A stretch of 64,000 nt of DNA, from positions 41,157-105,156 of IMG/VR virus record IMGVR_UViG_3300017987_000005; one strand, 5' to 3'. The notes beneath the pieces are model-generated. The model did not search any database, had not been told where the DNA came from, and saw nothing but the letters and a program-made list of their open reading frames with translations. The DNA comes from a virus. The position numbers and the translations under genes are program-made. Positions 12,675-41,304 of the stretch are shown one piece after another; the first letter of the stretch is position 1, and each line of letters begins with the position of its first letter.

Positions 12675-12705
12675 ATAAAAGAGCCGGCGGGGGTCACGCC
12701 GGCTC
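12675..12705 (-). terminator. intrinsic terminator
   Basis: GAGCCGGCG/CGCCGGCTC stem plus UUUUAUUU. Confidence 0.8.
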
Positions 12706-12743
12706 CAGGTGGTTGTTTGATTGTTTTAAGACAAGACTGACCC

Positions 12744-13157
12744 CTAATCTGTTTCGTCACATCCGCAGAATCCTTTCTTGCGCAACTCTTCGCGCCGCAC
12801 ATCGCGCTCCTTGATGTTATTGACTACCACTTCGACTGCTTTCTCAGTTGACTCTTTGAGTTCTTTGAGAATATCAATCTTCCTGCCACACTGCGGGCAG
12901 TATTTGTGGATACGGAGGCGGTCGCCATAACTGCTATTAAATCCGTCTGCTTTCTCAACAAGCGTCAGTACTCTGCTGTGGTTTGAACGCTGCACCACCA
13001 GCATTCTCAAACTTCCTCCGAACACTCCGAGCATGGGGTGGAAACCTCCACTGTGCTCCTCTTCGTACCACCCGAGTTCGCAATCACATTCAGGTTCTTT
13101 TTTCTGATTTCTTTTAGCAACCTTCTTTTTCTTAGCGCTACTCTTTTTCCTTACCAT
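12744..13157 (-). CDS. Zn-ribbon hypothetical protein
   Basis: CDC...YCPQCG; Lys-rich N-terminus; start MVRKK with SD GAGGAG. Confidence 0.7.
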   Translation of the reverse strand: MVRKKSSAKKKKVAKRNQKKEPECDCELGWYEEEHSGGFHPMLGVFGGSLRMLVVQRSNHSRVLTLVEKADGFNSSYGDRLRIHKYCPQCGRKIDILKELKESTEKAVEVVVNNIKERDVRREELRKKGFCGCDETD

Positions 13158-13413
13158 CACCACTCTCCTCAATCACAGTTCTTCGATTATCCCCGTGTTC
13201 GCCAACAATATCCCGCATCTCCTGCTCAATCTCCTTCACCTCGGTGAGCTTGACCTTCCTGAGCTGGCGCAACCCTTCGTACTTCTTGTTCACCCGCTTC
13301 TCAGGGTACTTGCAACGGTCGTACCGTTGGCAGGATGCGCAGTTATGGGCAAAGCGCTTCGGTGACCAACAATTAGTCCCGAGTTCACTTGACTTGATTA
13401 TCTGTGCCTTCAT
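13138..13413 (-). CDS. hypothetical protein
   Basis: CASCQRYDRCKY motif, SD AGGAGA. Confidence 0.7.
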   Translation of the reverse strand: MKAQIIKSSELGTNCWSPKRFAHNCASCQRYDRCKYPEKRVNKKYEGLRQLRKVKLTEVKEIEQEMRDIVGEHGDNRRTVIEESGDGKEKE

Positions 13414-13440
13414 AACTTTCTCCTAAAATATAGGGCGTTC

Positions 13441-13662
13441 TCACCCCTCCTGGAGCATTCCTTCCTGCATAATACGAGTCTCACCACGGGGAATAATTCC
13501 GTGGACTTCAACGCTCACCACGTCGAATCCCGCTTCCGACAGAGATTTCCTCACTGCCTCACGGAGTGCTTCAACGGCTTTAAGGTCAGAACGAACCATC
13601 CCGGTAATCTCCTCTCCGTTCTTCCCTTTAGCCGAGTACTCAATCTTCCGTGCTCGTTTCAT
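13441..13662 (-). CDS. hypothetical protein
   Basis: SD AAGGAGGGTG. Confidence 0.7.
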   Translation of the reverse strand: MKRARKIEYSAKGKNGEEITGMVRSDLKAVEALREAVRKSLSEAGFDVVSVEVHGIIPRGETRIMQEGMLQEG

Positions 13663-13686
13663 GACTCACCCTCCTTAAACGATTGG

Positions 13687-14067
13687 TTATTCTTTTCCGA
13701 ACGCGTCAGCCGCAGCAGATGCTCCCTTCGGAGGCTTATAATCACTGATGACCACGCTCACTACTTCACTCTCCGTAGTGTACGAACCCTCCTGAAGGTT
13801 CTCCACTTCCTCACGTTTCTTCACCGCGAGTCTTTTAAGCGCTTCCCCCGCCACGCCTTTCCACGCGACATTGGTTCGCTTCGTGGTCTTGATAGCGAGG
13901 ACCTTATCATCTACGATAACTTCCCCCGCTCCGACCACCAGGGTCTTCACATCGTCCTTGATTTTATCAAGGGCTTTTTTCGCGGCCTTCTCTGCTTCCT
14001 TGGCCTCGACATACTGCTTGACGAGTTCATATTCTTTCGACCCCGGCTCTACTCTCAATGACCCCAT
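13687..14067 (-). CDS. hypothetical coiled-coil phage protein
   Basis: start MGSLRV with SD GAAGGAG; YVEAKEAEKAAKK...VAWK. Confidence 0.7.
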   Translation of the reverse strand: MGSLRVEPGSKEYELVKQYVEAKEAEKAAKKALDKIKDDVKTLVVGAGEVIVDDKVLAIKTTKRTNVAWKGVAGEALKRLAVKKREEVENLQEGSYTTESEVVSVVISDYKPPKGASAAADAFGKE

Positions 14068-14113
14068 GTCCTTCTCCTTCAAAATACGGCAACTGTTGTT
14101 GAACCACGCAGGC

Positions 14114-14317
14114 TTATAACCCGAACTGTTTGAGGACTTCATCTTCCTTCGCCTCCTCTTCAAGCTCAACCTGCGACTTAGGGACATGCACCAACCCTTT
14201 GCGATGCATCTTCCATACAATATAAGCGAGTGCTTCGGCCTTGGTCAATACGGCATCTTTCGGCAAGTGATGTTCTTCCGCCTCGACCTCTGCTCTGATT
14301 TCTTCTTCAACTGTCAT
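14114..14317 (-). CDS. hypothetical protein
   Basis: start MTVEEE behind AGGAGACAAGGC leader. Confidence 0.7.
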   Translation of the reverse strand: MTVEEEIRAEVEAEEHHLPKDAVLTKAEALAYIVWKMHRKGLVHVPKSQVELEEEAKEDEVLKQFGL

Positions 14318-14358
14318 GCCTTGTCTCCTTGAAAACTGTCTAATCAAACAACACTATT

Positions 14359-14386
14359 ATTATATCATATAATAGGTATAAGTCAA
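14359..14386 (-). promoter_or_regulatory. sigma70-type promoter
   Basis: TTGACT-16-TG.TATAAT. Confidence 0.75.
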
Positions 14387-14389
14387 GAA

Positions 14390-14647
14390 CTATTTTGAAG
14401 AAACTTTGGGCCAATAATGTTTCACTTTCGAACCCTTCTTTGGTCTAACATATCCAACCACCTCACACTTGGGGCATCTCATTCGTCCGCTACCGCCGGT
14501 ACAGGATGTCATCTCATAATGATTATGTTGATGCTGGCACCGCTGGTACTGTAACAATTCGCAACTATCAGCCTTGGGGCAACGATATATCGGCTGCCCC
14601 GAGGCTATAGCTGATTCAAACCACGGCTTTTTCATTTCTTCGTCCAT
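14390..14647 (-). CDS. Cys/His-rich hypothetical protein
   Basis: CPKADSC...CQHQHNH...CPKC. Confidence 0.65.
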   Translation of the reverse strand: MDEEMKKPWFESAIASGQPIYRCPKADSCELLQYQRCQHQHNHYEMTSCTGGSGRMRCPKCEVVGYVRPKKGSKVKHYWPKVSSK

Positions 14648-14928
14648 CCGAACCGCCCCTCATTGCGGAGCATCTCGCACGCACCCCGGTAAGAAAGGAG
14701 GTCTGTGTTCTGAAACATATGTGTCACGCACCCTGGAGACAGGTACTCGTGTCCCTCATTCCCATACCGGAGGCATCCGTGAGCATTCCCGCTCACCTTG
14801 TCAGTATAAACATAGAGGTCATACTTCTCCTCATCGCCGGGACTCCTCACAACAACGAATGACCCAACATATTCCTCCGCCGCATGGTCACACTTGTTAT
14901 CCCACACAGGACCATTTATCTTTATCAT
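14632..14928 (-). CDS. hypothetical protein
   Basis: 98-aa ORF in operon. Confidence 0.65.
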   Translation of the reverse strand: MIKINGPVWDNKCDHAAEEYVGSFVVVRSPGDEEKYDLYVYTDKVSGNAHGCLRYGNEGHEYLSPGCVTHMFQNTDLLSYRGACEMLRNEGRFGWTKK

Positions 14929-15245
14929 GCCCGGCTCCTCTCCATTACTTCAGCAAGAGTATGGTCATAACCATAGTGTCTGTCACGTTCCATCGGCAGA
15001 CCCATGATATTGATGCTCTCCAGTTCACGAAGGCTGAAGTACCCCAGCTCGGGGAAATCTCCCTCAACCCATCCGAAGAACAGCCAATCCCCGTCCTCCT
15101 GCTTGCTTCCCTCAGTGGCAAACCACGTCCAATGACTGAACGGATGAAAGAACTTCACCACCACGTTAATGTCTTCCGGTTCTTTGTCCTCATTCGCATA
15201 CAGCGCCGGCAGCTTCGATTCGATTTCTTTTGTCATAAGCTTCAT
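14925..15245 (-). CDS. DUF2958 family protein
   Basis: MKLMTKEI..KLPALY...VVKFFHPFSHWTWFATE...FFGWV....ELGYFSLRELE...MERD. Confidence 0.85.
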   Translation of the reverse strand: MKLMTKEIESKLPALYANEDKEPEDINVVVKFFHPFSHWTWFATEGSKQEDGDWLFFGWVEGDFPELGYFSLRELESINIMGLPMERDRHYGYDHTLAEVMERSRA

Positions 15246-15520
15246 GCCTCGTCTCCTTCTTCCATACCAGTAACGATAAATGTTTCCCGACTCGGCGCCT
15301 CGCATACGGCATGGTACAAGTCTGCCGCGTGCTTCAGCCCTTCGGCTTCTTCAGCAATCTGTTTTGCTTCGAAGGCGACCGTGTGGGTATCCTGACTGTG
15401 CATCTTGTTGAGCCGCTTATTTATAGACGACATCTTTGATGCAACAGCTCCGCCGAGGACAGTCCTCAACGTTTTGTAATCGACCTCAATCTTTTCCGCA
15501 TCGAAATGTGATAACTTCAT
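15242..15520 (-). CDS. hypothetical protein
   Basis: start MKLSHF with SD GAGGAG. Confidence 0.65.
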   Translation of the reverse strand: MKLSHFDAEKIEVDYKTLRTVLGGAVASKMSSINKRLNKMHSQDTHTVAFEAKQIAEEAEGLKHAADLYHAVCEAPSRETFIVTGMEEGDEA

Positions 15521-15521
15521 C

Positions 15522-15761
15522 CTACCACTCCTCTCCGAACTTGAAGGCAGGACAGGCGTCATCACCCATCCCAACATTCTCACAGTCCTCAGCCCGACAT
15601 GCTGAACAATGTGGGTCACACCCGCGTTTCAGCAGGAACTCCACATAACCGGGGCTCAGATATCCCAGCCAACGCTCGATGTCCTTCTTTTTCGGATGGT
15701 CCGCCGGATAGCTGACTCTCTGATGTTCCGCATCAACCCGCTCAACTTTCAGTATCGTCAT
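15522..15761 (-). CDS. Cys-containing hypothetical protein
   Basis: CDPHCSAC...C...CP. Confidence 0.6.
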   Translation of the reverse strand: MTILKVERVDAEHQRVSYPADHPKKKDIERWLGYLSPGYVEFLLKRGCDPHCSACRAEDCENVGMGDDACPAFKFGEEW

Positions 15762-15762
15762 A

Positions 15763-16002
15763 TCATCCCCTTTGACCATAAAGGCTCATAACGAACTCGT
15801 GCACCTCGCGATGCAATCTCTGTCCCACCGTCAGACTTTCATCAGACGTCATTGCGCGCCGCAACTTCTCCGTGATTTCGGGATAGTTTATGACGCGACC
15901 TCCGGGATAGCAGTCCATGCGGACACACTTAATCTCGACCGCTACGTCCTCCCCGTCAACATTGAACGTATGCGAAAACTTGAACTCTGCCTTGTCTGTC
16001 AT
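15763..16002 (-). CDS. hypothetical protein
   Basis: AGGAGACAGGAC leader. Confidence 0.7.
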   Translation of the reverse strand: MTDKAEFKFSHTFNVDGEDVAVEIKCVRMDCYPGGRVINYPEITEKLRRAMTSDESLTVGQRLHREVHEFVMSLYGQRG

Positions 16003-16047
16003 GTCCTGTCTCCTTGTCAAAAGTAAATAACTTTCTTTTCTATAAGT

Positions 16048-16076
16048 ATTATATCATATAAATATAATAATTGCAA
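16048..16076 (-). promoter_or_regulatory. sigma70-type promoter
   Basis: TTGCAA-17-TG.TATAAT. Confidence 0.75.
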
Positions 16077-16234
16077 GCAAAAAATAAAAATTTCGTGCCC
16101 GACTTTCGACCGCAGCATTAGAGCAAAATCCCTACCTACCTCATTGGCTCAACTCACCACCACCGACACCTAACGCGTACGTAAATACACAACGCCGCCG
16201 CCTACACCTAACGTACGCGCAAATACACAAGACC

Positions 16235-16273
16235 AAAAAAAGGGCGGAATTGCAATCACGTGCAACTCCGCCC
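16235..16273 (-). terminator. intrinsic terminator whose upper stem/loop is a TTGCAA-N4-GTGCAA palindrome
   Basis: GGGCGGA..TTGCA/TGCAA..TCCGCCC plus U7. Confidence 0.75.
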
Positions 16274-16293
16274 GAAGCAGGAGACAAAACTGC

Positions 16294-16953
16294 TTATTCT
16301 TCGACGAGTTCTTTCACCTCGATAGGTATATAAACTATCTTCACTGCGATGACTTCGCCCGCAGCATTTCTTGACACAAAGGCATCGTAACTTCCATCCC
16401 CGACACCTGAGCTGCTCACGACTCCATACGGGATAAGACCCCAACTGTAGAACGACAGGGTGCGGTCACAACACAGGTTGTACCACTCCCCTCCTTCCTC
16501 CCCGTCACCCCTTCCGATATCAGTCTTGGTCAGACGAGGCGCTTCTTCCGCTACCTTATCGTCACGGAAGTGTTTCATGTCGAATATCCCGCACTGACCG
16601 CTATCCACTCCGATGTCAGCAGGTAAACGTTCCCACTCGGCCTGGGGCAACTCGCCCATATCGCGTTCGAAACTGTCCCGACAGAAATCTTCGTGGTGAG
16701 CATGAAGCTCAACGACACGATGGCCCCATCCATCAATGTTCACAACTTGTGCTCCAGGGAACCACTGTCCGTTCTTGGCTTCGACACTCCCTTGGCACCA
16801 CGTCCCTTTCGTGTAGCAGGGGTCTGAAATCATCAGTTCCCCCGACACCACTTCGAACTGGCATTTGTCATACGAAAAATCCATCCCGACCACTCCTTCA
16901 CAAAAGATAAAAAACGAAAACAGTACAACCATCATAATAACAATCTTCTTCAC
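16294..16953 (-). CDS. DUF4241-like protein, possibly with optional signal peptide (second start 16884)
   Basis: SGELMISDPCY, VDSGQCGIFD, SSSGVGDGSY...GEVIAVKI motifs; two in-frame starts each with GAAGGAG. Confidence 0.7.
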   Translation of the reverse strand: MKKIVIMMVVLFSFFIFCEGVVGMDFSYDKCQFEVVSGELMISDPCYTKGTWCQGSVEAKNGQWFPGAQVVNIDGWGHRVVELHAHHEDFCRDSFERDMGELPQAEWERLPADIGVDSGQCGIFDMKHFRDDKVAEEAPRLTKTDIGRGDGEEGGEWYNLCCDRTLSFYSWGLIPYGVVSSSGVGDGSYDAFVSRNAAGEVIAVKIVYIPIEVKELVEE

Positions 16954-16987
16954 GGCCCACTCTCCTTCACAAAAGAATAAAAAAACA

Positions 16988-17368
16988 TTACCGTTCCTCG
17001 CTCGGTATTGACTCTGTAATAACAGCCCGCATGGTCCAATCAAGTTCCACGCCATTGTGGATAAGTTTGAGGTCATAGTAATCCTCACGCATATCCGCCA
17101 TACACATTTCTGAAGCATAGTCAGTGAGTTCTGAAAGTGCTTGTTCTTTTGAATCGCACTCCACCACGCTCAGCTCCCCGTCTACATAACTGTGGACTTG
17201 CCACTCCGCGTCATGCGACTCCTTCTCCAGCTCGGCCTTGAGGTCGTTGTACTCCCCTGACAACTTGCTGGCCTCACGGGACAGTTCGTCCACTTCCCGT
17301 GCAATCTGTTCGCGCCGACGCTTATTAGCGTCCATGCACCCTTCAATTCTTTCTGATTTATCACTCAT
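16988..17368 (-). CDS. hypothetical coiled-coil protein
   Basis: 127-codon ORF in operon. Confidence 0.65.
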   Translation of the reverse strand: MSDKSERIEGCMDANKRRREQIAREVDELSREASKLSGEYNDLKAELEKESHDAEWQVHSYVDGELSVVECDSKEQALSELTDYASEMCMADMREDYYDLKLIHNGVELDWTMRAVITESIPSEER

Positions 17369-17676: not shown

Positions 17677-17683
17677 TGTCTCC

Positions 17684-17986
17684 TTAAATAAGTCCTTCGT
17701 CCCGCGCCGCGTGGTATCTGCGGTCGCCCTCATCCCAATAAGCATCCCGAGCTTCTTCAGCAGCCCGCTCCATCACGGCTTCCTCAATATCACAGAGTTC
17801 TGCATCGGTCAGTTCCCGACCAAGCAGTTCTTCAATATGTTCGGTATTGAGAATTTCAACTTCCGGGCCGCTGCCGGGGTATGCTCTGTCCGGTGGGTTC
17901 ATTATCATCGGCTCACCCGGCGTAATGTTGTAGTCAACTTCAAAATCGACTTCTTCGCCTTTGGTATTCTCAAGTGTCCAGTCCAT
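17684..17986 (-). CDS. acidic phage hypothetical protein
   Basis: conserved leader; first gene after promoter. Confidence 0.75.
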   Translation of the reverse strand: MDWTLENTKGEEVDFEVDYNITPGEPMIMNPPDRAYPGSGPEVEILNTEHIEELLGRELTDAELCDIEEAVMERAAEEARDAYWDEGDRRYHAARDEGLI

Positions 17987-18271: not shown

Positions 18272-18328
18272 GGCTTACCTCCTATCTAGCCTACCCGTAA
18301 TACCACTCCGGCACGCAAATACACAAGG

Positions 18329-22235: not shown

Positions 22236-22433
22236 CTATCTCCCTTCATTCATCAACGTTACTACAGCATTGTGGTGGATGCCGTACTTCTCGATAAGTT
22301 TATTAAACGCCTCTTCGTCATAAGAGATGCTGTTGTCATTTGCTAACCTGTGCTGATTCTCTGCGTGCATCCCCATCGCCTCAATCAAAGCGCATATTGA
22401 TTGTGAAATAATATAAGCATCATTATCACCCAT
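22236..22433 (-). CDS. hypothetical protein
   Basis: SD AGGAGA. Confidence 0.7.
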   Translation of the reverse strand: MGDNDAYIISQSICALIEAMGMHAENQHRLANDNSISYDEEAFNKLIEKYGIHHNAVVTLMNEGR

Positions 22434-22444
22434 GATATTCTCCT

Positions 22445-22482
22445 AAAATAAAAGCGGGGAGGGTGTGACAAGCACCCTCCCC
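22445..22482 (-). terminator. intrinsic terminator, part of a three-hairpin element
   Basis: GGGGAGGGTG/CACCCTCCCC stem plus UUUUAUUUU. Confidence 0.75.
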
Positions 22483-22541
22483 AGGAGACAAGACAAGGTA
22501 GCCTGGCGGCTACCCGCTTGCGCAGGTGTGACAAGCACCTG

Positions 22542-22757
22542 CTATTTTTCTATGAGTTCATAGTCGTCAACAATCTCGATGCCTCTGTCCCGCAACTCAC
22601 AGCCTATTTCAATCATCCAAAGAACATCGCCAATATCAGGCGACTTATTCGTTTCATCTTCAAACCGTGAACGGAGACGTGAGTGTTCTTCAATGAGTTC
22701 GTCCAATGACCATTCAGTCATCGGCCTCTCATTTACTTTTTCTCGTGTGTCGTGCAT
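22542..22757 (-). CDS. hypothetical protein
   Basis: conserved leader AAGGAGACAAGA. Confidence 0.7.
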   Translation of the reverse strand: MHDTREKVNERPMTEWSLDELIEEHSRLRSRFEDETNKSPDIGDVLWMIEIGCELRDRGIEIVDDYELIEK

Positions 22758-22786
22758 AATCTTGTCTCCTTCAATTGTCTAATTAT

Positions 22787-22814
22787 ATTATAGCATAAAA
22801 ACTTGATTTGTCAA
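22787..22814 (-). promoter_or_regulatory. sigma70-type promoter
   Basis: TTGACA-16-TG.TATAAT. Confidence 0.8.
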
Positions 22815-24877: not shown

Positions 24878-24895
24878 GGACTATCTGAAACAACT

Positions 24896-26545: not shown

Positions 26546-26561
26546 TTGCAAGTGATTGCAA
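26546..26561. promoter_or_regulatory. TTGCAA-N4-TTGCAA palindrome between promoter and RBS
   Basis: TTGCAAGTGATTGCAA; one of at least 12 copies. Confidence 0.65.
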
Positions 26562-26582
26562 TTAACTTAAACATACACTTAT

Positions 26583-26610: not shown

Positions 26611-26759
26611 GGGAAAAATAAAACAACTTCCGACCGTATATGTGCGGATTCGACCACCATTACGAGCGATTCCGCACGCAAATACACAAGAAATAAAAAG
26701 CCCCCGTGCAGGGCAAGCAATCCTACACGAGGGCCAGGGAAAGGAGGTGCGAGGTGTGA

Positions 26760-28465: not shown

Positions 28466-28505
28466 TCTCCTTCTGAAAAAGTCCTGTCTCCAAAGTAATA
28501 CTTAT

Positions 28506-28533
28506 ATTATAGCATATAAATGTAATATGTCAA
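28506..28533 (-). promoter_or_regulatory. sigma70-type promoter
   Basis: TTGACA-16-TG.TATAAT. Confidence 0.8.
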
Positions 28534-28542
28534 GGTCAAAAT

Positions 28543-29196
28543 AAAAAAATTAAGGGCCGGTGACAGAAAGGACCGCTAATCCCTCTCCGTCCCGGCCCCC
28601 GGCAGGTCTCTGACGCTCGGCTTCAGCTTACCACTAGGGGAATCGGCTTCGCATCTATCTGACGGCACGTTCAACTGCGGCCTCTGATAGGCATGGTCTT
28701 TGGCAACGGTCTCGTTTAGGCACGTCTGCTTAATCGGAGAAACTGGCACTTAGACATCTACCCCTCGCAATGAGGCGTCTGACAGTCCCGCCCTTCATCG
28801 TCGGTCCCTATGCGCGGGCCTTGACAACTACTCGGCGACACGGGTGGGGGTTTGCGCACTGTCCACCTTTTTTTAATCACTCTAAATATAAAAGAGCTTA
28901 GCACCTTCGACCTCTCCAGGTGTACCTGGTTAATGAGGCGTAGCAGGTTCGGCTCTATTGCGGTCGTAAAGGGGGGCAAGGGCATCCCGAAGGCTCTCCC
29001 TTCGGTTTTCGGAACCACTAATCTCCGGCTCCTCCACCCCCCAGTCATACTGCATTGGACTGTTTGTATAATAGTCCACGGCTCACCCTTACGTCGAATG
29101 GAGGGAGAATCTATCAGCCCATTTATTTAAGGGCGAGTTCTATACGCCGTCGCTTGTCAGGGAGCCTAAGCAGGGGTGGTCTGTTTTCAAAGAGCT
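28543..29196 (-). ncRNA. candidate large structured non-coding RNA (~650 nt)
   Basis: no credible CDS; boxA-like GCTCTTTGAAAAC at 5' end; several hairpins; 3' long G-U-containing stem plus U-tract. Confidence 0.55.
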
Positions 29197-29325
29197 ATTG
29201 CAATCACTTGCAATAATCCTCAGAGCCGCTCAGAGGCGTTCTAAGGCTTTAATAGGTCAGTATGAATAACGGCTCATTTCAAGGTCACTTCTCTTAATCT
29301 GGGCTCATTCTGGGCTCACAGCACC

Positions 29326-30618: not shown

Positions 30619-33063
30619 TCACATCCCCGCCTTTCGCACACTTTTTAACCCCTTCAAGAAGCCGGATATCTTCGTGTACGCAGTCTTAACAAGTTCGCTC
30701 ACCTTATCAACTTTGCAATGGTTCGTATAGTAACGACCGACACTTGAGTACTGAACTCCGATGCAGAACAGATTGATTTCGCCGCTATCCTCTATCTGTC
30801 GGGCAACCTGTATCAAATCTTCATCGGGATTGTATCGAGCATACCCCGCCGGCGCTCCATCGCAGATTACGATTAACAGTTTCTTGCTTTCCTTGCGCTC
30901 TGCCAATCTCCTGGCGGCCCATCGTAAACTCTCACCGTCAAGGTTCTGATAAAGCAGTACCTCGGGCAGACTTCCCATCGCACCTTTGGTCTTATGGTCT
31001 AATTTCCGTTCAAACGGTTTTACGACATAGCCGAGCAGTGGGCTCACTCTGGTGTACCCTTCTTTGTAGTGATGGCTCCCGCCTCCGACTTGGGTGAATC
31101 CGAGAACTTCAAACGGTACCCCGACTAAGTTCAATGTTTCCGACAGAATAATAGCAACATCCGTTGCCGTCTGTATCTTGCTTCCCGACATCGAACCGGA
31201 GCAGTCAACGAGCAGAGTAACCGCAGCATCAAGTTCAATCTTCCGCCGCTTCTGCTTGAACAAATCTTCTTCTTTGAATGCGACCCTGAATAAATCCCTG
31301 TCATTAATCGTACCCTGCTTCTGTCGCTTTGTCCACTTCTTAGGATTGCCGAGCAAGTCCATCAGCAGTCTCCGCCGGAGCACATTAACATCGCCCCTCA
31401 GTTCTTGGACATTCTTAGTGTATCGCTCGAACCCCCGCTCCCTCGCGTCCGCCGCATGCGTATGCGGATATACTTTTCCCAACGCAGCCGGGTCTCTCTC
31501 AGCAACAAGGTCTACCTCCCGGTCGTCATTGATGTAAGGTATCACAGTTTCCCCACGATAGCCGGAATCAACTTTGTCAGTAATAATCAGTTTGCTAACC
31601 TTATCATAAAGCACGCTTTCAGCAGTCACGCCCCCATCTGCTCCACTGCTCTGCTGAGCAATGCCTCCGATAGTTTCATCAAGTTTATCTTTAACTTCCT
31701 GCCGCTTCTCCTCGATGCTTTTTTCTTCTTCCTCTACCCCGTCTTCTTCACTCTCCTCACCATCAGGACTCCCGTCGCCATCACCGTCCCCTTCTTCGGC
31801 TTCCTCCTCACCCTCGTCATCATCAAAATCCTCATCCTCGCCATCATCATCCCAACCATCTTCCTCATAATCCTCTTCGCCCCACTCGTCCCAATCCTTT
31901 TCCTCTTCACCTTCCTCTTCGTCCTCTACCTCCCCTTCATCATCTGCTCCACTATCAGAACCTTCTCCATCAGAGGATGAATCCTCGGCCTCGTCTCCGT
32001 CTTCGCCTTCAGCAGAATCAGAAGTTCCCTCAGCCTCTTCAGTTTCTTCACTATCATCTCCGCCTCCTCCGGATTCATCTTCCCCTTCGCCGGCTCCTTC
32101 ATCTTCGCCCTCCTCACTGCAATCACTTGCAGAACTATCGTCACCTTTATCTTTTCTCATATCAATTTCTTCAACTTCCCCCGGACCGGAACTATCCTTT
32201 TCCTGCTCCCCCTCACCTTTACCTTCCCCGTCCTCGGATTTGTCGCTCTTGCTCTTTTTCCCCTTGCCTCCCTTTGAGGACTTCCCGCCAGACTCAGAAC
32301 TCTCACTATCCCCATCAGCCTCAGAAGAACTCCCCTGTCCCTGACCGGACTGGCTTTCCCCTTCCTGTCCTTCCTCACCCTCTCCCCCATACGGGTTCGG
32401 CACTTCGACCTGACTGATATAGTCCTTCAAAATTTCAGTCATTTCCATTGAGAGGTTAACTACCTCCTCAGTACTGCGAACTGACTTCGCCCGCTCCAAC
32501 TGCTCCTTCACCATGTCCACGAATTTCGGGTACATCGGGCTGACCTCTTCTCCACGACTGTCAATATACTCAATATCGTCCGGCCTGTGGGTTCTTGTCA
32601 TACGCATACCGAGCAGAAGCAGGGCACGTTCGTTATCATCGCAACCCTCCTTGTCTCGGATATTACTGCAAATGTCCTCTTTATAGAGCGCCTGATTGTG
32701 AATGAAGTCAAGGTTTCGGGCTACGCCGAGAGCCTTCTCCCCCATCAGCTTATCGACCCTGGCATCTTCCATTGCATTACTGAAAAAATGGACAATCCCC
32801 GCGCCGATTATTTTCTTCCGTTTGTAAACACCCATGTCGGTGTCATTAACGTGACCGGACTCATGGTCAACAAGACCTCGAAGCATATTGATTGCTTCAT
32901 CACTCAAGTCCGCCGGAAGTGGTGGCAGATGTATGATACCATGCTTGTTAGGCTCAGTATATGCTCCGCCCTTCGTGTCGTAAAGGATACGAACACGTTT
33001 GCCGGCACAGACACGTGCAGCCGCTTGCTGTCCGACTTCTAACATTCTTGCTAACTTACTCAT
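30619..33063 (-). CDS. cobT: CobT-like vWA (MIDAS) protein with N-terminal HExxH domain and long acidic linker
   Basis: HESGH; NAMEDARVD; E/D/G/S-rich middle; LLVDCSGSM, EVLGFT, DGESL.WA..RL, LIVICDGAP. Confidence 0.8.
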   Translation of the reverse strand: MSKLARMLEVGQQAAARVCAGKRVRILYDTKGGAYTEPNKHGIIHLPPLPADLSDEAINMLRGLVDHESGHVNDTDMGVYKRKKIIGAGIVHFFSNAMEDARVDKLMGEKALGVARNLDFIHNQALYKEDICSNIRDKEGCDDNERALLLLGMRMTRTHRPDDIEYIDSRGEEVSPMYPKFVDMVKEQLERAKSVRSTEEVVNLSMEMTEILKDYISQVEVPNPYGGEGEEGQEGESQSGQGQGSSSEADGDSESSESGGKSSKGGKGKKSKSDKSEDGEGKGEGEQEKDSSGPGEVEEIDMRKDKGDDSSASDCSEEGEDEGAGEGEDESGGGGDDSEETEEAEGTSDSAEGEDGDEAEDSSSDGEGSDSGADDEGEVEDEEEGEEEKDWDEWGEEDYEEDGWDDDGEDEDFDDDEGEEEAEEGDGDGDGSPDGEESEEDGVEEEEKSIEEKRQEVKDKLDETIGGIAQQSSGADGGVTAESVLYDKVSKLIITDKVDSGYRGETVIPYINDDREVDLVAERDPAALGKVYPHTHAADARERGFERYTKNVQELRGDVNVLRRRLLMDLLGNPKKWTKRQKQGTINDRDLFRVAFKEEDLFKQKRRKIELDAAVTLLVDCSGSMSGSKIQTATDVAIILSETLNLVGVPFEVLGFTQVGGGSHHYKEGYTRVSPLLGYVVKPFERKLDHKTKGAMGSLPEVLLYQNLDGESLRWAARRLAERKESKKLLIVICDGAPAGYARYNPDEDLIQVARQIEDSGEINLFCIGVQYSSVGRYYTNHCKVDKVSELVKTAYTKISGFLKGLKSVRKAGM

Positions 33064-33111
33064 TTGTTCACCCTCCGAATATATGAGTATCTTAACTAAA
33101 TATACAATTAT

Positions 33112-33139
33112 ATTATATCATATAATTGCAATAAGTCAA
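33112..33139 (-). promoter_or_regulatory. sigma70-type promoter
   Basis: TTGACT-16-TG.TATAAT. Confidence 0.75.
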
Positions 33140-33226
33140 GCAGATTTTCAAACAACTTCTCACCCTTAGTTAAGGGGCGGAGGTCTGCATCCCCCGCCCC
33201 TTCATTTGCGAAGAACGGAGGGTGAC

Positions 33227-34408
33227 CTATTCTTCGCTCGTGCCCATCCTGTCGCTCATATCAATCGGGTCTTTAGCTATCCGCTGATAAATCTCAGCAA
33301 GCGCCATCGCGTCCTCGTCCGTGCATTTATTCAGCACCGCGACTTTGAACGCATCGACCATCGTCCATCCCTTCCCGATAAGCTTCGCCGTGGCGATACT
33401 TTTCCGAAGGCTGAATGTAGTCATAATATCCTGACCGAAGCTCGCACGTGCAGCCGTGGCAATCTTCGTTAATGATTTCGCTTGCGCCTGTCCGATTCCG
33501 GTTCTCCTGCGGAGCACCTTTATCTCGTCTGACTGTGACAGGTAATTGATGCGGAACACTCCCAACCATCTATCAAGGAAGGCTTCGTCAAGTATCTGCC
33601 GACTCCGATAGATGTCTGCTTGGTCACCTCGTCCTGCGGTATTCGAGGTGGCGACCACTGCGAATCCTGGAGCCGCTTTGACGCGCTCACCGTGGTTCTT
33701 GGAAACAATGAGGTCTTTACCTTCCAGAACTCGTTGGAGTACGAACAGAATTCCCTGCTCCGCCACGTCCAACTCGTCAATCTGAAGCACCAATCCCTCA
33801 CGCATTGACTGCGTAAGCGGACCATCGGTAAATACGGTTTCCATCACACCGTCACCGTTGTCTTTCAGACTGATGTGTCCGATGAAGTCATCGACCGTGG
33901 TTTCCTCGGTCATATTGAATGGAAGTACTTTCCGACCGAGCTTGTGTTTGATAACACGTTCAAGCAGGTCTGTTTTCCCCGTGCCGGCAGGTCCGATTAA
34001 GAGAACGGGAAACCCCTCCTCAATCAGTTCGACTACCTTGGGGGTGCATTCGGGATAGATATAGAAATCCGAATCGGCATCGCCGTCGAACTCCTTACCT
34101 TCCCTGAGTGTGGGTGTCGGCTGACCCTTAATCCCTTTATAGGATTTAGGAGTAACCTTGACATTGAGAGTACTCTCAGTCACCCACGCAAGTTTCACAC
34201 CGGGAATCGTAAGGTCGGTTATTTCAGAAATGACGTCTGCCTTGAGACCCTTCTCACGCAAATCATCATCCGCGACCTCGAAATCGGTGCACCCGACTTC
34301 AGCGATAAACTCGTGCAGAACGAGCTTCGCCTCTTCCTTACGCATCTGGTCGATTGCCGACTCAGACTTTGTGGCAAATCCTGCCAGTTTTTTGTCGTCC
34401 ATCTTCAC
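33227..34408 (-). CDS. cobS: CobS/CbbQ/MoxR-type AAA+ ATPase
   Basis: GPAGTGKT Walker A, LQIDELD Walker B, ATSNT.G.GD, LDEAFLDRW, FSLRK; next to vWA partner. Confidence 0.85.
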   Translation of the reverse strand: MKMDDKKLAGFATKSESAIDQMRKEEAKLVLHEFIAEVGCTDFEVADDDLREKGLKADVISEITDLTIPGVKLAWVTESTLNVKVTPKSYKGIKGQPTPTLREGKEFDGDADSDFYIYPECTPKVVELIEEGFPVLLIGPAGTGKTDLLERVIKHKLGRKVLPFNMTEETTVDDFIGHISLKDNGDGVMETVFTDGPLTQSMREGLVLQIDELDVAEQGILFVLQRVLEGKDLIVSKNHGERVKAAPGFAVVATSNTAGRGDQADIYRSRQILDEAFLDRWLGVFRINYLSQSDEIKVLRRRTGIGQAQAKSLTKIATAARASFGQDIMTTFSLRKSIATAKLIGKGWTMVDAFKVAVLNKCTDEDAMALAEIYQRIAKDPIDMSDRMGTSEE

Positions 34409-36607: not shown

Positions 36608-37148
36608 TTTCCATTCTCCTTAACATCTGAATAACGGGGGCATCCTTCGCCGCTACCGCAGCTCCTAAAGCATCTGCTACGTGCTCCCGTTGAGTCTTAT
36701 TCACACCATCCAGGATGTCCGGTATCATTTCCACTGCACGTGATTGCACTTCCTCCTTCGAGGCGGACTTCTTACCCGTCATGGCGACCTTAACGTCGGT
36801 GGGTGTCGCATACAAGAACGGCAGGTTCTCATACACCACATCCAACGCGGCGATTATCCCACTAGCCAATCCCATCGCTCGCATAGCTTTAGCACTCTTA
36901 GAGCCCATACTCGGCATCTCCAGCACGACCGCAGCGGGCTCATACTCGTCGATGACGCGGCGTACCGACCTCGTGATTTCACGACACCGCCTCACATTGT
37001 CATCAGCAGACCGAATACTCAGCTTCTTGGGCGACGGCTTGGTCGATATCACTTCTTTATACACAAGACCTAAATCACGCGCGCGAATACACAAGACGAC
37101 AATGCCCATACTCGCAAATCCAACATCTATGGCTACTATATTGTTCAT
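36597..37148 (-). CDS. ruvC: RuvC-like Holliday junction resolvase
   Basis: IDVG..SMG, VLEMP, TPTDVK..MTG..SASKEEV, HVADALG. Confidence 0.9.
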   Translation of the reverse strand: MNNIVAIDVGFASMGIVVLCIRARDLGLVYKEVISTKPSPKKLSIRSADDNVRRCREITRSVRRVIDEYEPAAVVLEMPSMGSKSAKAMRAMGLASGIIAALDVVYENLPFLYATPTDVKVAMTGKKSASKEEVQSRAVEMIPDILDGVNKTQREHVADALGAAVAAKDAPVIQMLRRMENDA

Positions 37149-38008
37149 TTCTTAAAGCTCCAGCACTCTTCTCTAAAGGGACATTCGCGGGCCCGCGTCG
37201 TCGATTTTCTGCTGCACTTACGCTGGCACATGATGACTGGGTCCGGTTCGCCGGCTGCTACACACTCTTCGATGGCGTCAATGGTCCTGAATGCATTCTC
37301 AACCAGGTCCTCACGTTTATCCTCAATGACGGCACGGTATCTGTAGTCATCCCGGCAAATAAATAGGTATACGCACTTATCCACACCCAGCAGCTCCATG
37401 TAAATACTCGCCTGGGTCCTCTCCCTGGCGTTGGGGGCATGAGTCTTCTCCCAGGTGTTCCTGGATTTACTCTTCATCTCAAGAATCATGTCATCCAGGG
37501 AAGGTATCCTGATGATTCCATCAGAATGACCCCGAATCTTGTGTTCGTGGCTGAGAACTTGTGGTTCCAGGTATTGCAATCGATTGCAACTGCACTCCGG
37601 GCACTTCCCAGGGAGGAACGTCTTCTCAAACTCTGCCCCGCATTTGGGGCATTCCCAACTTCCCCACAGGATTCCCGCAGGTCCCAGGACCCGGTCCTGG
37701 AAAAAGTTGTGGGCCTGGGTCCCCGCAGCAGCCATTAACGACAGCGGCAGGTTAGGCTCCTCAATAAGAACTGGCGGGCGGCGTATCCGCAACCAGAACT
37801 CCGCGACTGGGCACATGTCGTGGATACGACTGGGATGGTAATAATCGTCGAATATCCGTCTCTCCGGCTTCGACATCAGCTCAGTGACAGCCTTCTCGAC
37901 GGTTTCCTCCGGCGTCTCCTTCACCCACTCCGGCTCTTCGTAAACCTCCCCGGCGCGTTTTTTCTGGTTATGCGTTCTCAGGTCGCCGAAACTGAATCCA
38001 TCACTCAT
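37145..38008 (-). CDS. Cas4-like PD-(D/E)XK exonuclease with Zn-ribbon insert
   Basis: PS...MCP, GTQAH, GHSDG..ILEMK, QASIYM, C-terminal C...C..CPF...C; start ATG 38008 coupled to upstream stop. Confidence 0.85.
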   Translation of the reverse strand: MSDGFSFGDLRTHNQKKRAGEVYEEPEWVKETPEETVEKAVTELMSKPERRIFDDYYHPSRIHDMCPVAEFWLRIRRPPVLIEEPNLPLSLMAAAGTQAHNFFQDRVLGPAGILWGSWECPKCGAEFEKTFLPGKCPECSCNRLQYLEPQVLSHEHKIRGHSDGIIRIPSLDDMILEMKSKSRNTWEKTHAPNARERTQASIYMELLGVDKCVYLFICRDDYRYRAVIEDKREDLVENAFRTIDAIEECVAAGEPDPVIMCQRKCSRKSTTRARECPFREECWSFKK

Positions 38009-38282
38009 CAGATGCAGCCGGCTTGCTCGGTACGGCGGCAGCGGCATCTGAATCGATGAGCTTAACCGTCACCGTCGTCTTGGTCTGGAGGGTGAACTTC
38101 TTGCGCAGCGACAGGATTGCGAACTCACCTTCGAGTCCAGCTCCCTCTTTCTTCGCCTGGGCTCTCACCCACTTCTCACACTCATACGTGTTGGCGAAAC
38201 CGCCCTTCTTCAGGACGAGGTTATCCCCATCAATCTTATAAACCCCGTAATCACTCTTTCCGACTTTCTTAGCCATGCTCAT
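38001..38282 (-). CDS. small basic hypothetical protein
   Basis: SD AGGAGAG. Confidence 0.7.
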   Translation of the reverse strand: MSMAKKVGKSDYGVYKIDGDNLVLKKGGFANTYECEKWVRAQAKKEGAGLEGEFAILSLRKKFTLQTKTTVTVKLIDSDAAAAVPSKPAASDE

Positions 38283-38385
38283 TCTCTCCTCGAATCTAAT
38301 ACCTCACGCACATGCGCGAATACACATGGCGCATTTTAATAGCGCAGTGTGACGACCTCACACGCGCGCGCAAATACACATGAAC

Positions 38386-38760
38386 CTACTTACGGTCCAT
38401 GCAAAAAATAGCAATAGTCATCAGGATGACGATTAACCATCCCATATTCCCCATAGCACACCCCAGTGCTGCTGCGGAGATGTAAGCGAAGGTCCCAATA
38501 GTATTGATGAGCAGCAGACGCTTCTTGCGGCGCAGCTCTTCCTGCTTCAGGTCCATCTCATCTGACTCCTCATCAGGGTCCTCACGCAGCTCCCAGGGAA
38601 TCTCCTCAGCAACAACATTCCCATCCTCATCTGCACTTACGTGTATCCAGGGACGGTCCTGGTCATCCGGGTCCGTATGGGTTGATGCGACGGTCATCTC
38701 GCTGTAGGGCACTGGCTTCTTGAGGGATTCCTCATCCTGAATAAAATTGGTTGCAATCAT
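38386..38760 (-). CDS. membrane protein
   Basis: acidic N-terminus, two C-terminal TM segments. Confidence 0.7.
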   Translation of the reverse strand: MIATNFIQDEESLKKPVPYSEMTVASTHTDPDDQDRPWIHVSADEDGNVVAEEIPWELREDPDEESDEMDLKQEELRRKKRLLLINTIGTFAYISAAALGCAMGNMGWLIVILMTIAIFCMDRK

Positions 38761-39140
38761 TGTACTTTCTCCTTCCAAGCTTGGTACATCTCGCGAAACA
38801 GTTCGACAGGCACAGCAATCCAGTCAGAAGGAGCTGGGCTCTTTCCCTCCAGAAAACTGAAGGCGAGCGCTGCTTCCTTGTCCTGCTGCTTCGCTTCTTT
38901 ATAAATCTTCTCGAGTACTTTACGACGAACAGCAATCGATTGGGCTCTCGTCGCTTTTTCCTCTATCTTAAACATTCCGTCCAATTCCCGGTCCCCCTTA
39001 TATCCAGACAGCCGTCCAGATGCAGGCGTGGGCTCTCCTCCGAGACTGCGGTCGAGTCGGCGATTCTGCTGCTTCTCATGAGGAGGCTTTCCCCAACGGT
39101 CCACTTTCGCTTTCTCGGCAGGTCTGTCCCAGTCAGTCAT
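38757..39140 (-). CDS. Hjc-like PD-(D/E)XK nuclease/resolvase
   Basis: E.......LGG..TPASG....KGD......IEEK.T. Confidence 0.75.
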   Translation of the reverse strand: MTDWDRPAEKAKVDRWGKPPHEKQQNRRLDRSLGGEPTPASGRLSGYKGDRELDGMFKIEEKATRAQSIAVRRKVLEKIYKEAKQQDKEAALAFSFLEGKSPAPSDWIAVPVELFREMYQAWKEKVQ

Positions 39141-40291
39141 CAGGTAACATCTCCAAACATGAAATCAAGGTTGAATCGCTTCAGGCACTCGTACTCGTTA
39201 CGATTCTCGATGAAGAACTGCTGGACATCCTTGTTGTTAGTGATTCCTTTCGGCAGCTCAAACCCGGCTTTCGGATGAACGCAATAATCCTTTCCATCCT
39301 TGAATATGGTCTCGAGGTCCATAGAATCCCTGAACAGCATCGGGGTCTCATCGATGACTCCCTTCTGGAAGAAGGAGGTCCGCTTGGTCACTAAGTTGAA
39401 CTTGGCGATATCCCCGAAGGTGGAGGTCAGTTTAGTCTTCTTGACTTCACACTCAACTCCAGCCATTTTCCCGATATCAACAGCATCCTGCTTACATTTC
39501 TTAAAGCGCAACTCAAAACTGTTGGCATACTCCTTGGTTTTCCCTCCCGCCTTCTCCTCCGTCGGGTGGAATCCTCCAATCCCGATGTTGATGTGGCAAA
39601 CTATAAAGATAACGAGTCTACGCTTAGCTAACATCCCCATCTCATTCTGTGCCATCACAATCCGGCGGATGAATCTGTTGATTTTGCGGGCGCGCAGCGC
39701 CATAACGTCTTCTTCCATACTCTTCTCCAGGTCAGCTTTGGGCGTCAACATGGTGAGAGTATCGATTACAACAAAGCTGGCGTCTGCTTCGCGAACGACT
39801 CCATCAACGATATCAAGTCCGGCTTCAGCATTATCGGGCTGCGTAACCCACATCAAGTCGTTGTCAACTCCGCAGCACTCAGACCAATCCGCGTCGTACG
39901 CTCCCTCAACATCCAGCCAAATAGTCTCAAACGGCTTGGGTGTCTTGCATTCGCATGCGGGTTCCCCCGGATAAAAGATGCGGTCCGGCTTAACGCGAAG
40001 GCAGTGGCGGCAATAACGCTGAGCATTTGCAATCGAGTGCAATAATGTCGTAGTCTTCCCTCCAGACTCCTTCCCGTAAATCTGAACAATGCGTCCCAGG
40101 GGCCAACCCCCCTCCAGCAGCTTATCCACTCCGTATATCCCACTGGGAATACGTTCAATACGCACTGCTGGTGACTTCGATGCCTGCGCTATCGAGTCAT
40201 TCCCGTATTTCTTCTTGATATTGCTGACAATTTCCCCGATGCTGGCCTTTTTTACGGGTTTTGGGGACTCATCATCCTTCTTCTTGCCCAT
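39140..40291 (-). CDS. recA: RecA/UvsX recombinase with Cys-rich insert
   Basis: IPSGI..VD.LL.GGWPLGRIVQIYGKESGGKTT, LDVEG, VIDTL. Confidence 0.92.
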   Translation of the reverse strand: MGKKKDDESPKPVKKASIGEIVSNIKKKYGNDSIAQASKSPAVRIERIPSGIYGVDKLLEGGWPLGRIVQIYGKESGGKTTTLLHSIANAQRYCRHCLRVKPDRIFYPGEPACECKTPKPFETIWLDVEGAYDADWSECCGVDNDLMWVTQPDNAEAGLDIVDGVVREADASFVVIDTLTMLTPKADLEKSMEEDVMALRARKINRFIRRIVMAQNEMGMLAKRRLVIFIVCHINIGIGGFHPTEEKAGGKTKEYANSFELRFKKCKQDAVDIGKMAGVECEVKKTKLTSTFGDIAKFNLVTKRTSFFQKGVIDETPMLFRDSMDLETIFKDGKDYCVHPKAGFELPKGITNNKDVQQFFIENRNEYECLKRFNLDFMFGDVT

Positions 40292-40630
40292 TTACTTCTC
40301 CCCACGAAGGTTGTCATCAACTTCCTTCTTAATCTGGATGAGCTTCTGTCCAGCAAACTCGCGGGCTGAGGCGTACGCGTCCTCGAGTCCCTCCACAGGA
40401 GTGGGCAGTGTACAGGTAACTGATATCTTGGCGGACTCATAGTCCCCGAGGTTCAGGGTCAGTCCCAGGGTAACGCTTATGCGTGCGGGCTCAACCCCTT
40501 CAGGAAAACGCACTGGTTCCATCGTATCCTCATCGGAACTCAACGGTTCCCAGGGTTTTCTGACTCCCTTGCGGTACATGGTGTGACAGGAATAGCCTCC
40601 TGCCTCGGCTTTTTCGCCTTTCTTCGACAT
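40292..40630 (-). CDS. conserved phage hypothetical protein (TLNLGDYES motif)
   Basis: LTLNLGDYESAKISV. Confidence 0.7.
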   Translation of the reverse strand: MSKKGEKAEAGGYSCHTMYRKGVRKPWEPLSSDEDTMEPVRFPEGVEPARISVTLGLTLNLGDYESAKISVTCTLPTPVEGLEDAYASAREFAGQKLIQIKKEVDDNLRGEK

Positions 40631-40657
40631 CTCACTCTCTCCTTAATGTCTACAGGG

Positions 40658-41131
40658 TTAATCCGTCTCGATATTGCTCCCCTCATCGTCGATGAGTTCG
40701 CTGGCGACGAATTCTTCTTCAATCATCTTCCCGAACTGTTCCAGGCTTCCGCGAAGACGCTTCTTCAGCACACGACGCATCGCTTCGATATAATCCCAGG
40801 AATACCAATCCCTGTCGAGCGAATCTATCATCGTGGGCGCAGGAAGAATCCCTGCTTGCTTCCAATTCCATATGGTCATCCGGGATATCCCGAGGAAATC
40901 ACAAAAGGCTGCACTGTGAAAAACTTCCAATCCTTTATATAGGCGTGGTTTCCACAGTCCTTCCCCGTCGCGCTCATCCTCGAAATTCCGAATCTCCTGG
41001 AGACGCTCCTGGCGTCTTTCTTCTGATAACTTGCGGCTGTTCTCGCGGGCTTTTTCCGCGAACTCTTCGTCCGTACGATATTTCCGCCCCATACGTGACA
41101 GTTCTTTTAAGGGCTTTAGTTGTCTAGGCAT
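40658..41131 (-). CDS. MerR-like HTH protein
   Basis: FCDFLGISRMTIWNWKQAGILP...RDWYS. Confidence 0.75.
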   Translation of the reverse strand: MPRQLKPLKELSRMGRKYRTDEEFAEKARENSRKLSEERRQERLQEIRNFEDERDGEGLWKPRLYKGLEVFHSAAFCDFLGISRMTIWNWKQAGILPAPTMIDSLDRDWYSWDYIEAMRRVLKKRLRGSLEQFGKMIEEEFVASELIDDEGSNIETD

Positions 41132-41173
41132 TGCTCATTCTCCTCATGGATTACCGGACAAATCTATATGTTT

Positions 41174-41201
41174 AGTATAACGTAAAAATTTGATTTGTCA
41201 A
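41174..41201 (-). promoter_or_regulatory. sigma70-type promoter of recombination operon
   Basis: TTGACA-16-TATACT. Confidence 0.7.
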
Positions 41202-41250
41202 GGAAAAAATCGGAAAAAATTTCGTTTCGTTATATTATACGAAATGAATT

Positions 41251-41304
41251 AAAAAAGGGGATGGCGGGAGGAGAGAGTGAGCAAGAGCCTCCCGGCACAT
41301 CCCC
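41251..41304 (-). terminator. intrinsic terminator with anti-leader loop
   Basis: GGGGATG..GGGAGG/CCTCCC..CATCCCC plus U6. Confidence 0.7.

Follow-up and report, generated by a model that had tools for sequence, protein, structure and literature searches.

Do the transcripts of a phage end in sequences complementary to the ribosome-binding sites (RBSs) of its own genes and, if they do, are those sequences functional and with which leaders would they pair? The question is raised by the minus-strand RNA of a 64,000-nucleotide (nt) stretch of the IMG/VR record IMGVR_UViG_3300017987_000005 (positions 41,157 to 105,156; hereafter the window), part of a single 183,648-bp contig of an uncultivated phage. 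An earlier note on this DNA had proposed that 3′ untranslated regions (3′ UTRs) at six sites, here called (a) to (f), and more weakly at about 10430, display complements of the phage's RBS leaders (anti-leaders), and the sequences that it quoted are all present on the minus-strand RNA where it placed them. Sites (a), (c), (d) and (e) bear the observation out and (b) does so only marginally; (f) and ~10430 do not rise above background and fall away as leader complements. Sequence comparison supports at least (a), (c) and (d) as functional RNA elements, neither chance matches nor plus-strand RBSs, and (b) and (e) are probably conserved operon-end anti-RBS elements as well. Because the anti-RBS segments of (a), (c) and (d) are kept while their stems change, they probably shut off translation by pairing with leaders.

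Long leader complements are in excess between genes

Intergenic k-mers complementary to any leader were counted and compared with dinucleotide shuffles, using our own approximate gene calls, 264 leaders (−22..+3) and 21 kb of intergenic sequence:

k = 9: observed 342, shuffle mean 268
k = 11: observed 39, shuffle mean 13.9
k = 12: observed 17, shuffle mean 3.1
k = 13: observed 8, shuffle mean 0.7 (maximum 4)
k = 14: observed 3, shuffle mean 0.14

Leader-complementary 13-mers are 11-fold over shuffles, and the orientation controls at this length gave 0 (complement only) and 1 (reverse only). The shuffle comparison suggested in the earlier note is thus borne out for long k-mers but not for the 9-mers at (b) and (c), which are not individually significant: the excess at k = 9 is slight, so that 9-nt matches of this kind are insufficient alone. 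Compared with shuffled anti-leaders, the duplex energies at sites (a) to (e) reach z scores between −3 and −6, and (f) shows no such signal. The same energies computed for whole 3′ UTRs against all leaders were uninformative, G/C-rich terminator arms dominating them. Depletion of anti-Shine-Dalgarno (aSD) sequences was not seen in the phage coding sequences (CDSs; observed/expected 0.6-1.3, first-order Markov expectation).

Could chance and local mutation suffice, with template switching or inverted micro-duplications copying leaders and C-rich terminator arms mimicking aSDs, all without function? The near-background 9-mers and the non-significance of (f) fit such an account, about three of the 12-mer matches are expected by chance, tRNA T-arms account for two of the nine matches of at least 12 nt (window-equivalent positions 138177 and −39329), and CCUCC in several 3′ UTRs is merely the descending arm of a terminator. 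The 11-fold excess of 13-mers speaks against it, as do anti-leader cores that are invariant on covarying flanking stems in three to five diverged lineages at (a), (c) and (d). We consider this account very unlikely overall, and for those three sites it is already disfavored. A further genome match, at −2468, was rejected as an anti-leader, being A/T-rich and without relation to the Shine-Dalgarno (SD) sequence.

Anti-leader segments stay fixed while stems change

Relatives (L numbers below) are short metagenomic contigs on which the proteins adjoining the three sites (a), (c) and (d) show 60-80% identity; their DNA was then compared. The check for covariation proposed earlier came out in favor of the anti-leaders, the stems varying at all three sites while the anti-leader or anti-SD segment is fixed. 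Promoters and terminators are pattern matches from a sequence scan rather than mapped transcript ends. The features at and around (a) are:

22445..22544, minus strand: site (a), structured 3′ UTR of the 71-amino-acid gene 22542..22757 (fold z = −6.3; terminator from the scan)
22522-22542, minus strand: hairpin 1, loop CUUGUCA
22496-22515, minus strand: hairpin 2
22482..22496, minus strand: anti-leader UUGUCUUGUCUCCUG in the linker, sole copy in the 184-kb genome
22455-22483, minus strand: terminator with a U-tract after it (terminator scan)
22439..22444, minus strand: SD AGGAGA of the next gene (22236..22433), right behind the U-tract
22787-22814, minus strand: promoter of the 71-amino-acid gene (12/12 consensus)
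22755..22814, minus strand: this promoter and the gene's own leader AGGAGACAAGAUUAUG, with which the anti-leader is predicted to pair (duplex −19.9 kcal/mol, z −4.3)

A 14/14 complement had been reported here; the complement is real but longer, UUGUCUUGUCUCCUG (22496-22482) matching the leaders at 8510, 8210 and 6767 over 15/15 nt and a fourth over 14/14, ~14 kb off (duplex with the distant leaders −27.1 kcal/mol, z −6.3). Three lineages with ~70% protein identity (window, L244-247 and L254/255) retain the three-hairpin 3′ UTR, five pairs having changed on both sides, and in all three the 12-nt core GUCUUGUCUCCU and the hairpin 1 loop CUUGUCA are invariant. Nucleotide identity is 77-79% in the 3′ UTR, 66-75% in the CDS and 59% at third codon positions. 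The gene's own leader reads AGGAGACAAGA(C/U) in each lineage and is complementary to the anti-leader over 11-12 contiguous nt. When the whole 336-nt mRNA, bracketed by the promoter at 22787-22814 and the terminator at 22455-22483, is folded, SD and anti-leader are predicted to be paired (P ~1.0) in the window and in two relatives. Local pairing of the linker appears only when the downstream SD is included in the fold; on a read-through RNA the UCUCCU of (a) can pair with the next-gene SD across the terminator (RNAalifold columns 62-66 with 108-112) in three lineages, and this SD stands immediately 3′ of the U-tract in all of them.

The gene at (a) is also the first of a 17-member leader cluster, which brings in a different partner. 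Terminator-proximal 3′-UTR pieces, acting as small RNAs (sRNAs), or intact mRNAs might pair in trans with many RBSs of one leader type and give class-wide shut-off or timing. The position of (a) at the head of the cluster fits this view, as does its better fit to the distant leaders than to its own, with a seed that is invariant in three lineages. In the relatives, on the other side, the sole known perfect leader match to (a) is the own leader.

Site (c) lies at the end of a MoxR/CobS-like gene, ahead of CobT:

33208..33237, minus strand: site (c), hairpin GCGAAGAA/UUCUUCGC over the UAG stop of a MoxR/CobS-like gene, 14-nt loop UAGGUCACCCUCCG
33174..33200, minus strand: G/C hairpin after (c), without a proper U-tract in the window (fold; unlisted in the terminator scan), probably a leaky terminator or a 3′ stabilizer
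33112-33139, minus strand: CobT promoter
33061..33139, minus strand: CobT promoter and leader UUCGGAGGGUGAAC, which complements the (c) loop 10/10 and the 41320-41331 loop 12/12 (duplex z −4.0 and −5.7)

Five lineages carry five stems around this loop (GCGAAGAA/UUCUUCGC, GAGGAG/CUCUUC, GGGGAA/UUCCCC, CUACC/GGUAG and GCUUUC/GAAAGC), with CCCUCC as its sole invariant element. The MoxR gene's own leader carries GGAGGGU in 5/5 lineages and complements (c) over 8-10 nt in all five; in four of them the 2-3 nt after the core also agree between own leader and loop (UGA, UAG, UA and UUA). The next-gene leader is AAAGGAU instead in L007 and L010. Given the constant MoxR leader and the matching nucleotides after the core, the own leader is the most consistent partner of (c); in the window, the CobT leader fits the loop one base better than the MoxR leader does. 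The loop is free in the full-context fold in 4/5 lineages.

Three observations on relatives belong beside this site. At L003:3050-3110, and also in L004, CCCUCCUCUG after the MoxR stop and the CGGAGGG of the next hairpin are predicted to form a long composite hairpin, possibly an alternative, attenuator-like fold. Between MoxR and CobT, L001 carries an extra small open reading frame (ORF; 6585-6620) that starts MKVWFNN... and includes a WFNN motif. L010, a 12.6-kb NCBI contig (GCA_048622575.1), represents a related phage with 58% identity in MoxR and the gene order kept; it is filed in a metagenome-assembled genome labeled Elusimicrobiota, which reflects either mis-binning of a phage contig or a clue to the host.

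At (d), the anti-leader is shown in the loop of a terminator:

41308..41337, minus strand: hairpin 1 of the (d) 3′ UTR, loop ACCCUCCG
41257..41304, minus strand: site (d), intrinsic terminator with an unusual 16-nt loop CUCUUGCUCACUCUCU, anti-leader at 41269-41281 (fold z −4.5)
40628..40657, minus strand: leader AAGGAGAGAGUGAGAUG of 40292..40630, the second gene downstream of (d), and the best (d) partner (duplex −25.1 kcal/mol, z −4.05)

Both hairpins are kept in five lineages (fold z −4.5 to −5.7). The terminator stems are all different and all still complementary, around loops of 15-19 nt, and identity over the five lineages is 80% in the loop vs 65% in the arms, the reverse of the usual terminator pattern; arms and loops were compared directly because the MAFFT alignment of (d) was too poor for pair counts. 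The 13/13 complement to the leader of 40292..40630 is confirmed: loop and first stem bases complement the second downstream leader 13/13 in the window, 14/14 in L248-253 and 12/12 in L001, where the second downstream gene is non-homologous and leader and anti-leader are each 2 nt shorter. GAGAGUGAG is found upstream of several further start codons. Just upstream of (d), the loop at 41331-41320, absent from the earlier note, complements the CobT leader at 33063 over 12/12 nt; the position of this hairpin 1 is kept in relatives, with the loops CCCUCC (L001, L258), ACUCCGA (L257) and GCUUUCUGACU (L249).

An architecture like that of (d) recurs outside the window, at G000:C1:165858-165870 (window-equivalent 124714-124702), where an anti-leader UAUUCACUCUCCG lies within a branched terminator. 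Two CGGAGAGUGAAUA-type leaders are complementary to it over 13/13 nt and three more over 11-12 nt, and a consensus promoter and then a GGAGAGUGAA leader follow downstream.

By sequence reading of (a), (c) and (d), none of these three is followed by a plus-strand start codon at usable spacing, as had been claimed. A plus-strand ORF or RBS reading was rejected for them on this ground and because their stems covary, compensatory stem changes not being the pattern of a conserved plus-strand peptide.

Sites (b), (e), (f) and ~10430

The remaining sites were assessed in the window:

16275..16295, minus strand: site (b), hairpin AAGCAG/CUGCUU with loop UUUUGUCUC, anti-leader UUGUCUCCU at 16279-16287 (fold)
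16242-16273, minus strand: terminator after (b) (terminator scan)
12711..12737, minus strand: site (e), mostly single-stranded GUCUUGUCUUAAAACAAUCAAACAACC, 5′ of the terminator 12680-12706 (fold)
26733..26759, minus strand: site (f), single-stranded pyrimidine-rich tail including CACCUCCUUUC; the terminator downstream ends at 26700
10399..10436, minus strand: weak site ~10430, UCUCCU just 5′ of the terminator 10399-10426, with a 5-nt complement to its own operon's leader

Folding places (b), like (c) and (d), in hairpin or terminator loops, and (e) and (f) as single strands just 5′ of terminators. The segment at (b) pairs with the first leader of its operon, at 17986, over 14 bp including 2 G-U (z −4.1), and this leader is also its predicted partner in the minimum free energy (MFE) fold of the 1.79-kb operon RNA. 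The complement at (e) consists of 11 nt and a second 9-bp segment, the duplex being −24.6 kcal/mol (z −5.25) with the downstream 5′ UTR (12540-12577) and −18.0 kcal/mol (z −3.3) with the own-operon 5′ UTR (14318-14352); in the MFE fold of the 1.68-kb operon RNA, (e) is predicted to form 26 bp with its own 5′ UTR. No leader partner of (f) rises above shuffles (z −0.3 to −1.6), and we take it for a generic anti-SD-like tract whose significance is unproven; the MFE fold of its predicted operon RNA pairs it partly with its own first leader.

Two observations stand next to these sites. Tracts of the type AAGUUGUUU(U/G)A, UP-element-like, occur just upstream of −35 boxes at 33150-33165, 26620-26640, 24880-24895 and 12615-12635; because the 5′ UTRs at 14342 and 12565 contain GUUGUUUGA too, both sense and antisense matches around (e) are inflated. 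The ORF 10248..10430 (GTG start at 10412) begins within the strong intrinsic terminator 10399-10426 and is probably not a gene.

Pairing in cis is the favored reading

How would such segments work? We favor occlusion in cis, within one RNA molecule. The anti-RBS segment, short and pyrimidine-rich and shown in a hairpin loop, in a terminator loop or as a single strand 5′ of a terminator, would have one of two partners. One is the leader at the head of its own gene or operon, so that the mRNA would close 5′ to 3′. The other is the next cistron's leader on transcripts that continue past the terminator, in which case the translated transcripts would be those from the intervening promoter. Pairing of either kind would block 30S binding and probably speed decay, and protein output would thereby be limited or timed. 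We put the chances of such cis action at about even.

The placement is the first point in its favor. Anti-leaders occur in 1-3 copies per type in 184 kb, inside or at the edge of their own leader cluster, and this co-location with the matching leaders points to cis action. The four long unbiased matches likewise have their best partners 0.6-14 kb off in a 184-kb genome. Promoters stand between anti-leader and leader at (b) (16048-16076), (c) (33112-33139), (d) (41174-41201) and (e) (12583-12610); at (a) there is no intervening promoter, the next SD lying directly behind the U-tract. The proposal that anti-leaders track the local leader type finds support in a permutation test on the longest exact complement (downstream leader, p=0.023; first leader of the own operon, p=0.016) and none in the thermodynamic model (p=0.65). 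The proposed 5′-3′ mRNA pairing is likewise predicted by folding for the (a) mRNA in three lineages and by MFE for the (b) and (e) operon RNAs, with swap controls that are unspecific.

Several results weigh against cis occlusion. The thermodynamic read-through model gives a probability of 0.5-0.8 that the SD at the flagged sites is paired with the 3′ UTR, but chimeras with swapped 3′ UTRs mask the SD equally, and the model was dropped as evidence. In swapped operon RNAs, any early-type 5′ UTR will do for closure by the 3′ UTR of (a), (b) or (e), and unflagged 3′ UTRs sometimes give 8-24 bp. The own leader in the window offers (a) only 11 bp and a G-U, against 14-15/15 in the four distant leaders. 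In L003, the predicted fold has CCCUCC of (c) locally paired to GGAGGG in the hairpin that follows. At (d), there is no match to the own leader (z +0.5), complementarity drops to 9 nt and a G-U in L257 and to 7 in L258, and the hairpin 1 loop matches only a leader 8 kb off; GGAGAGUGAG leaders are common, GAGAGTGAG having ~16 occurrences in the genome, so that the match in L001 may be partly coincidence. A search for relatives covering (b), (e) and (f) found none, and the phage matched none of the RNA runs searched. Closure of whole operons at (b), (e) and (f) was also rejected as operon-specific, since the diagonal of the swap matrix averages ~11 vs ~8 bp, class-level at best and not rare. Together, the swap and read-through controls show that the data support complementarity at the level of a leader class, co-located with that class.

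This class-level complementarity would suit the trans-acting alternative introduced at (a), as would the 41320-41331 loop, whose only match is the distant CobT leader (12/12), the conserved (d) loop, and the conserved seeds in loops or next to terminators, an arrangement like that of 3′-UTR-derived sRNAs and of the C-rich-loop sRNAs of Firmicutes. Yet close co-location of anti-leader and leader is predicted by cis action and unneeded for action in trans, and 1-3 anti-leader copies per type stand against 9-28 leaders. We regard action in trans as rather unlikely, and a class-silencing sRNA layer as less likely than cis occlusion. A genome-wide layer, in which each leader-type block would have one or two anti-leader RNAs silencing the whole class in trans and in cis on read-through RNA, with (a) as master repressor of the 17 AGGAGACAAGACAA-type early genes, strikes us as quite improbable.

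The segments may also have another role altogether, as a protein-binding site (for an antitermination or processing factor, nut/boxB-like) or in alternative pairing with the G-rich 5′ arm of the neighboring terminator that modulates termination, leader complementarity being a by-product of pyrimidine-rich vs purine-rich SD sequence. A constant loop on a covarying stem is the classic signature of a protein-binding hairpin too, and the (d) loop is retained though its complementarity decays in two lineages. Terminator 5′ arms are SD-like (GGGGAGGGUG, GGAGGGGUC), UCUCCU adjoins them at (a) and ~10430, and the L003 MFE fold pairs CCCUCCUCUG with the CGGAGGG of the next hairpin. What this leaves unexplained are the perfect matches of 12-15 nt that go past the SD core into sequence particular to a leader (ACAAGACAA, GAGUGAG), the fact that they outnumber those in shuffles and orientation controls, and a (c) loop unpaired in the full context in 4/5 lineages; we hold such a role to be unlikely. 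Cis occlusion stays our preferred reading, within which we infer in vivo pairing, the choice of partner and the effect; the data fit closure of the own mRNA, masking of the next cistron and action in trans alike.

The phage, its relatives and other features of the window

Nearly all genes of the contig are on the minus strand, GC skew is uniform over it, and strong sigma-70-type promoters go together with long SD leaders. Near-identical copies of the phage are present in sediment and seawater metagenomes. In INPHARED, a near search found no relative and the protein mode only distant CobT matches. Scans of IMG/VR with 14-mers returned ~230 loci, none related by local blastn except for one 77-bp match (L048), and protein and pattern scans of IMG/VR and JGI (RecA, the 217-aa and 274-aa proteins (aa, amino acids), the 32-nt (a) pattern) returned zero relatives, which leaves (b), (e) and (f) without comparative data. 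No Rfam family, C4 included, reached the gathering score in the whole window; around (a), only a spurious snoRNA match appeared (E=0.65).

Palindromes of the type TTGCAA-N4-TTGCAA, probably the operator of a DNA-binding protein, occur near promoters and in the (b) terminator loop (41636-41754, 29180-29200, 26549-26564, 16248-16262, 12655-12670 and others), and they give spurious reverse-complement matches between intergenic regions. Long, ORF-poor and highly structured stretches lie at 28466-29325 of the window and at L001:15270-16511; modules ending in ...GGGGNUAGCGGUCC... and a U-tract recur at the former and several times in L001, making these a candidate non-coding RNA array. A sense-strand motif, (C)UUGUGUAUUUGCG(C/U)G, stands in intergenic sequence downstream of terminators at 38283-38385, 26640-26700, 18300-18328, 16180-16240 and 7767-7865.

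Comparison with known systems

In Staphylococcus aureus, a 3′-UTR anti-SD of the icaR mRNA, UCCCCUG (7 nt), pairs with the mRNA's own SD (PMC3868564), and hbs of B. subtilis has a 5′/3′-UTR interaction (PMC5737220). As in these two, a 3′-UTR anti-SD here complements an SD predicted to lie on the same mRNA, with blocked initiation and faster decay as the predicted result; such a complement to the leader of the own gene or operon is found at (a), (c), (b) and (e), not at (d), and (a), like icaR, would be a short monocistronic unit. Unlike them, the present elements are in a phage, complement 11-15 nt including leader-specific sequence rather than 7 nt, number several per genome, some of them in terminator loops, and pair by prediction only. 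In B. subtilis more broadly, aSD-like 8-mers in the CDS or 3′ UTR repress by pairing with the RBS across hundreds of nucleotides, lowering both mRNA level and translation (Gill et al. 2025, PMC12697547), and aSD-like sequences are generally selected against (PMC12697547). The phage shares with these the pyrimidine-rich tract far from the RBS, including in the 3′ UTR; in contrast to the selection seen there, its anti-leaders are conserved at operon ends, which implies use.

The earlier suggestion that phages offer no described parallel goes too far, given e, soc, 49 and I-TevI of T4, whose RBSs are masked on read-through transcripts (PMC3014915), and c4 of P1/P7 (Citron & Schuster 1990, cited in PMC8198154). 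The T4 genes resemble (b), (c), (d) and (e) in the order anti-RBS, promoter, RBS, the RBS in T4 being free only on transcripts from the internal promoter. They differ in that the T4 structure is a compact local hairpin around a late promoter, whereas the arms here are 100-650 nt apart, with a terminator and a sigma-70-type promoter in between, and specificity for the downstream leader is weakly supported here (p=0.02; 0.65 in the thermodynamic model).

The c4 RNA is encoded on the strand of its target and pairs at the downstream RBS; processing yields this RNA, 77 nt long, from the operon's 5′ end, and the CI RNA of P4 is grouped with it. It is summarized as an antisense RNA from the c4-icd-ant operon that is required for ant repression (PMC8198154, its ref. 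12). Common to c4, P4 CI and the present sites is a same-strand phage RNA with exposed segments that complement a downstream RBS region, although here the elements are 3′ UTRs and terminators and give no Rfam C4 match. RNAIII and RsaE, whose UCCCC motifs are discussed in PMC3868564, and 3′-UTR-derived sRNAs offer a last likeness, a C-rich anti-SD seed in a hairpin loop near a terminator; a separate stable RNA or action in trans is a proposal only in the present case.

Should the pairing prove real, 3′-UTR and terminator-loop anti-RBSs would be a recurring design in a large uncultivated phage, with translation limited or tied to promoter choice, and a mechanism from a few bacterial mRNAs (icaR, hbs) would extend to phages, where it is little documented. 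A class-silencing layer, if true, would be an RNA-based counterpart of the RegB/RegA early shut-off of T4. The (a) unit, a 336-nt mRNA with a 12-nt invariant anti-leader, would be a compact model, and (d), its loop conserved beyond the stem, an unusual double use of an intrinsic terminator. For the annotation of phage regulatory RNA, a rule would follow: seek leader complements right behind final stop codons. Taken together, icaR and hbs, the masking in T4 and c4 mean that a mechanism of this kind is already known. New here are its setting in a phage, the several elements in one genome, complements long enough to be leader-specific, and a terminator loop put to this use.

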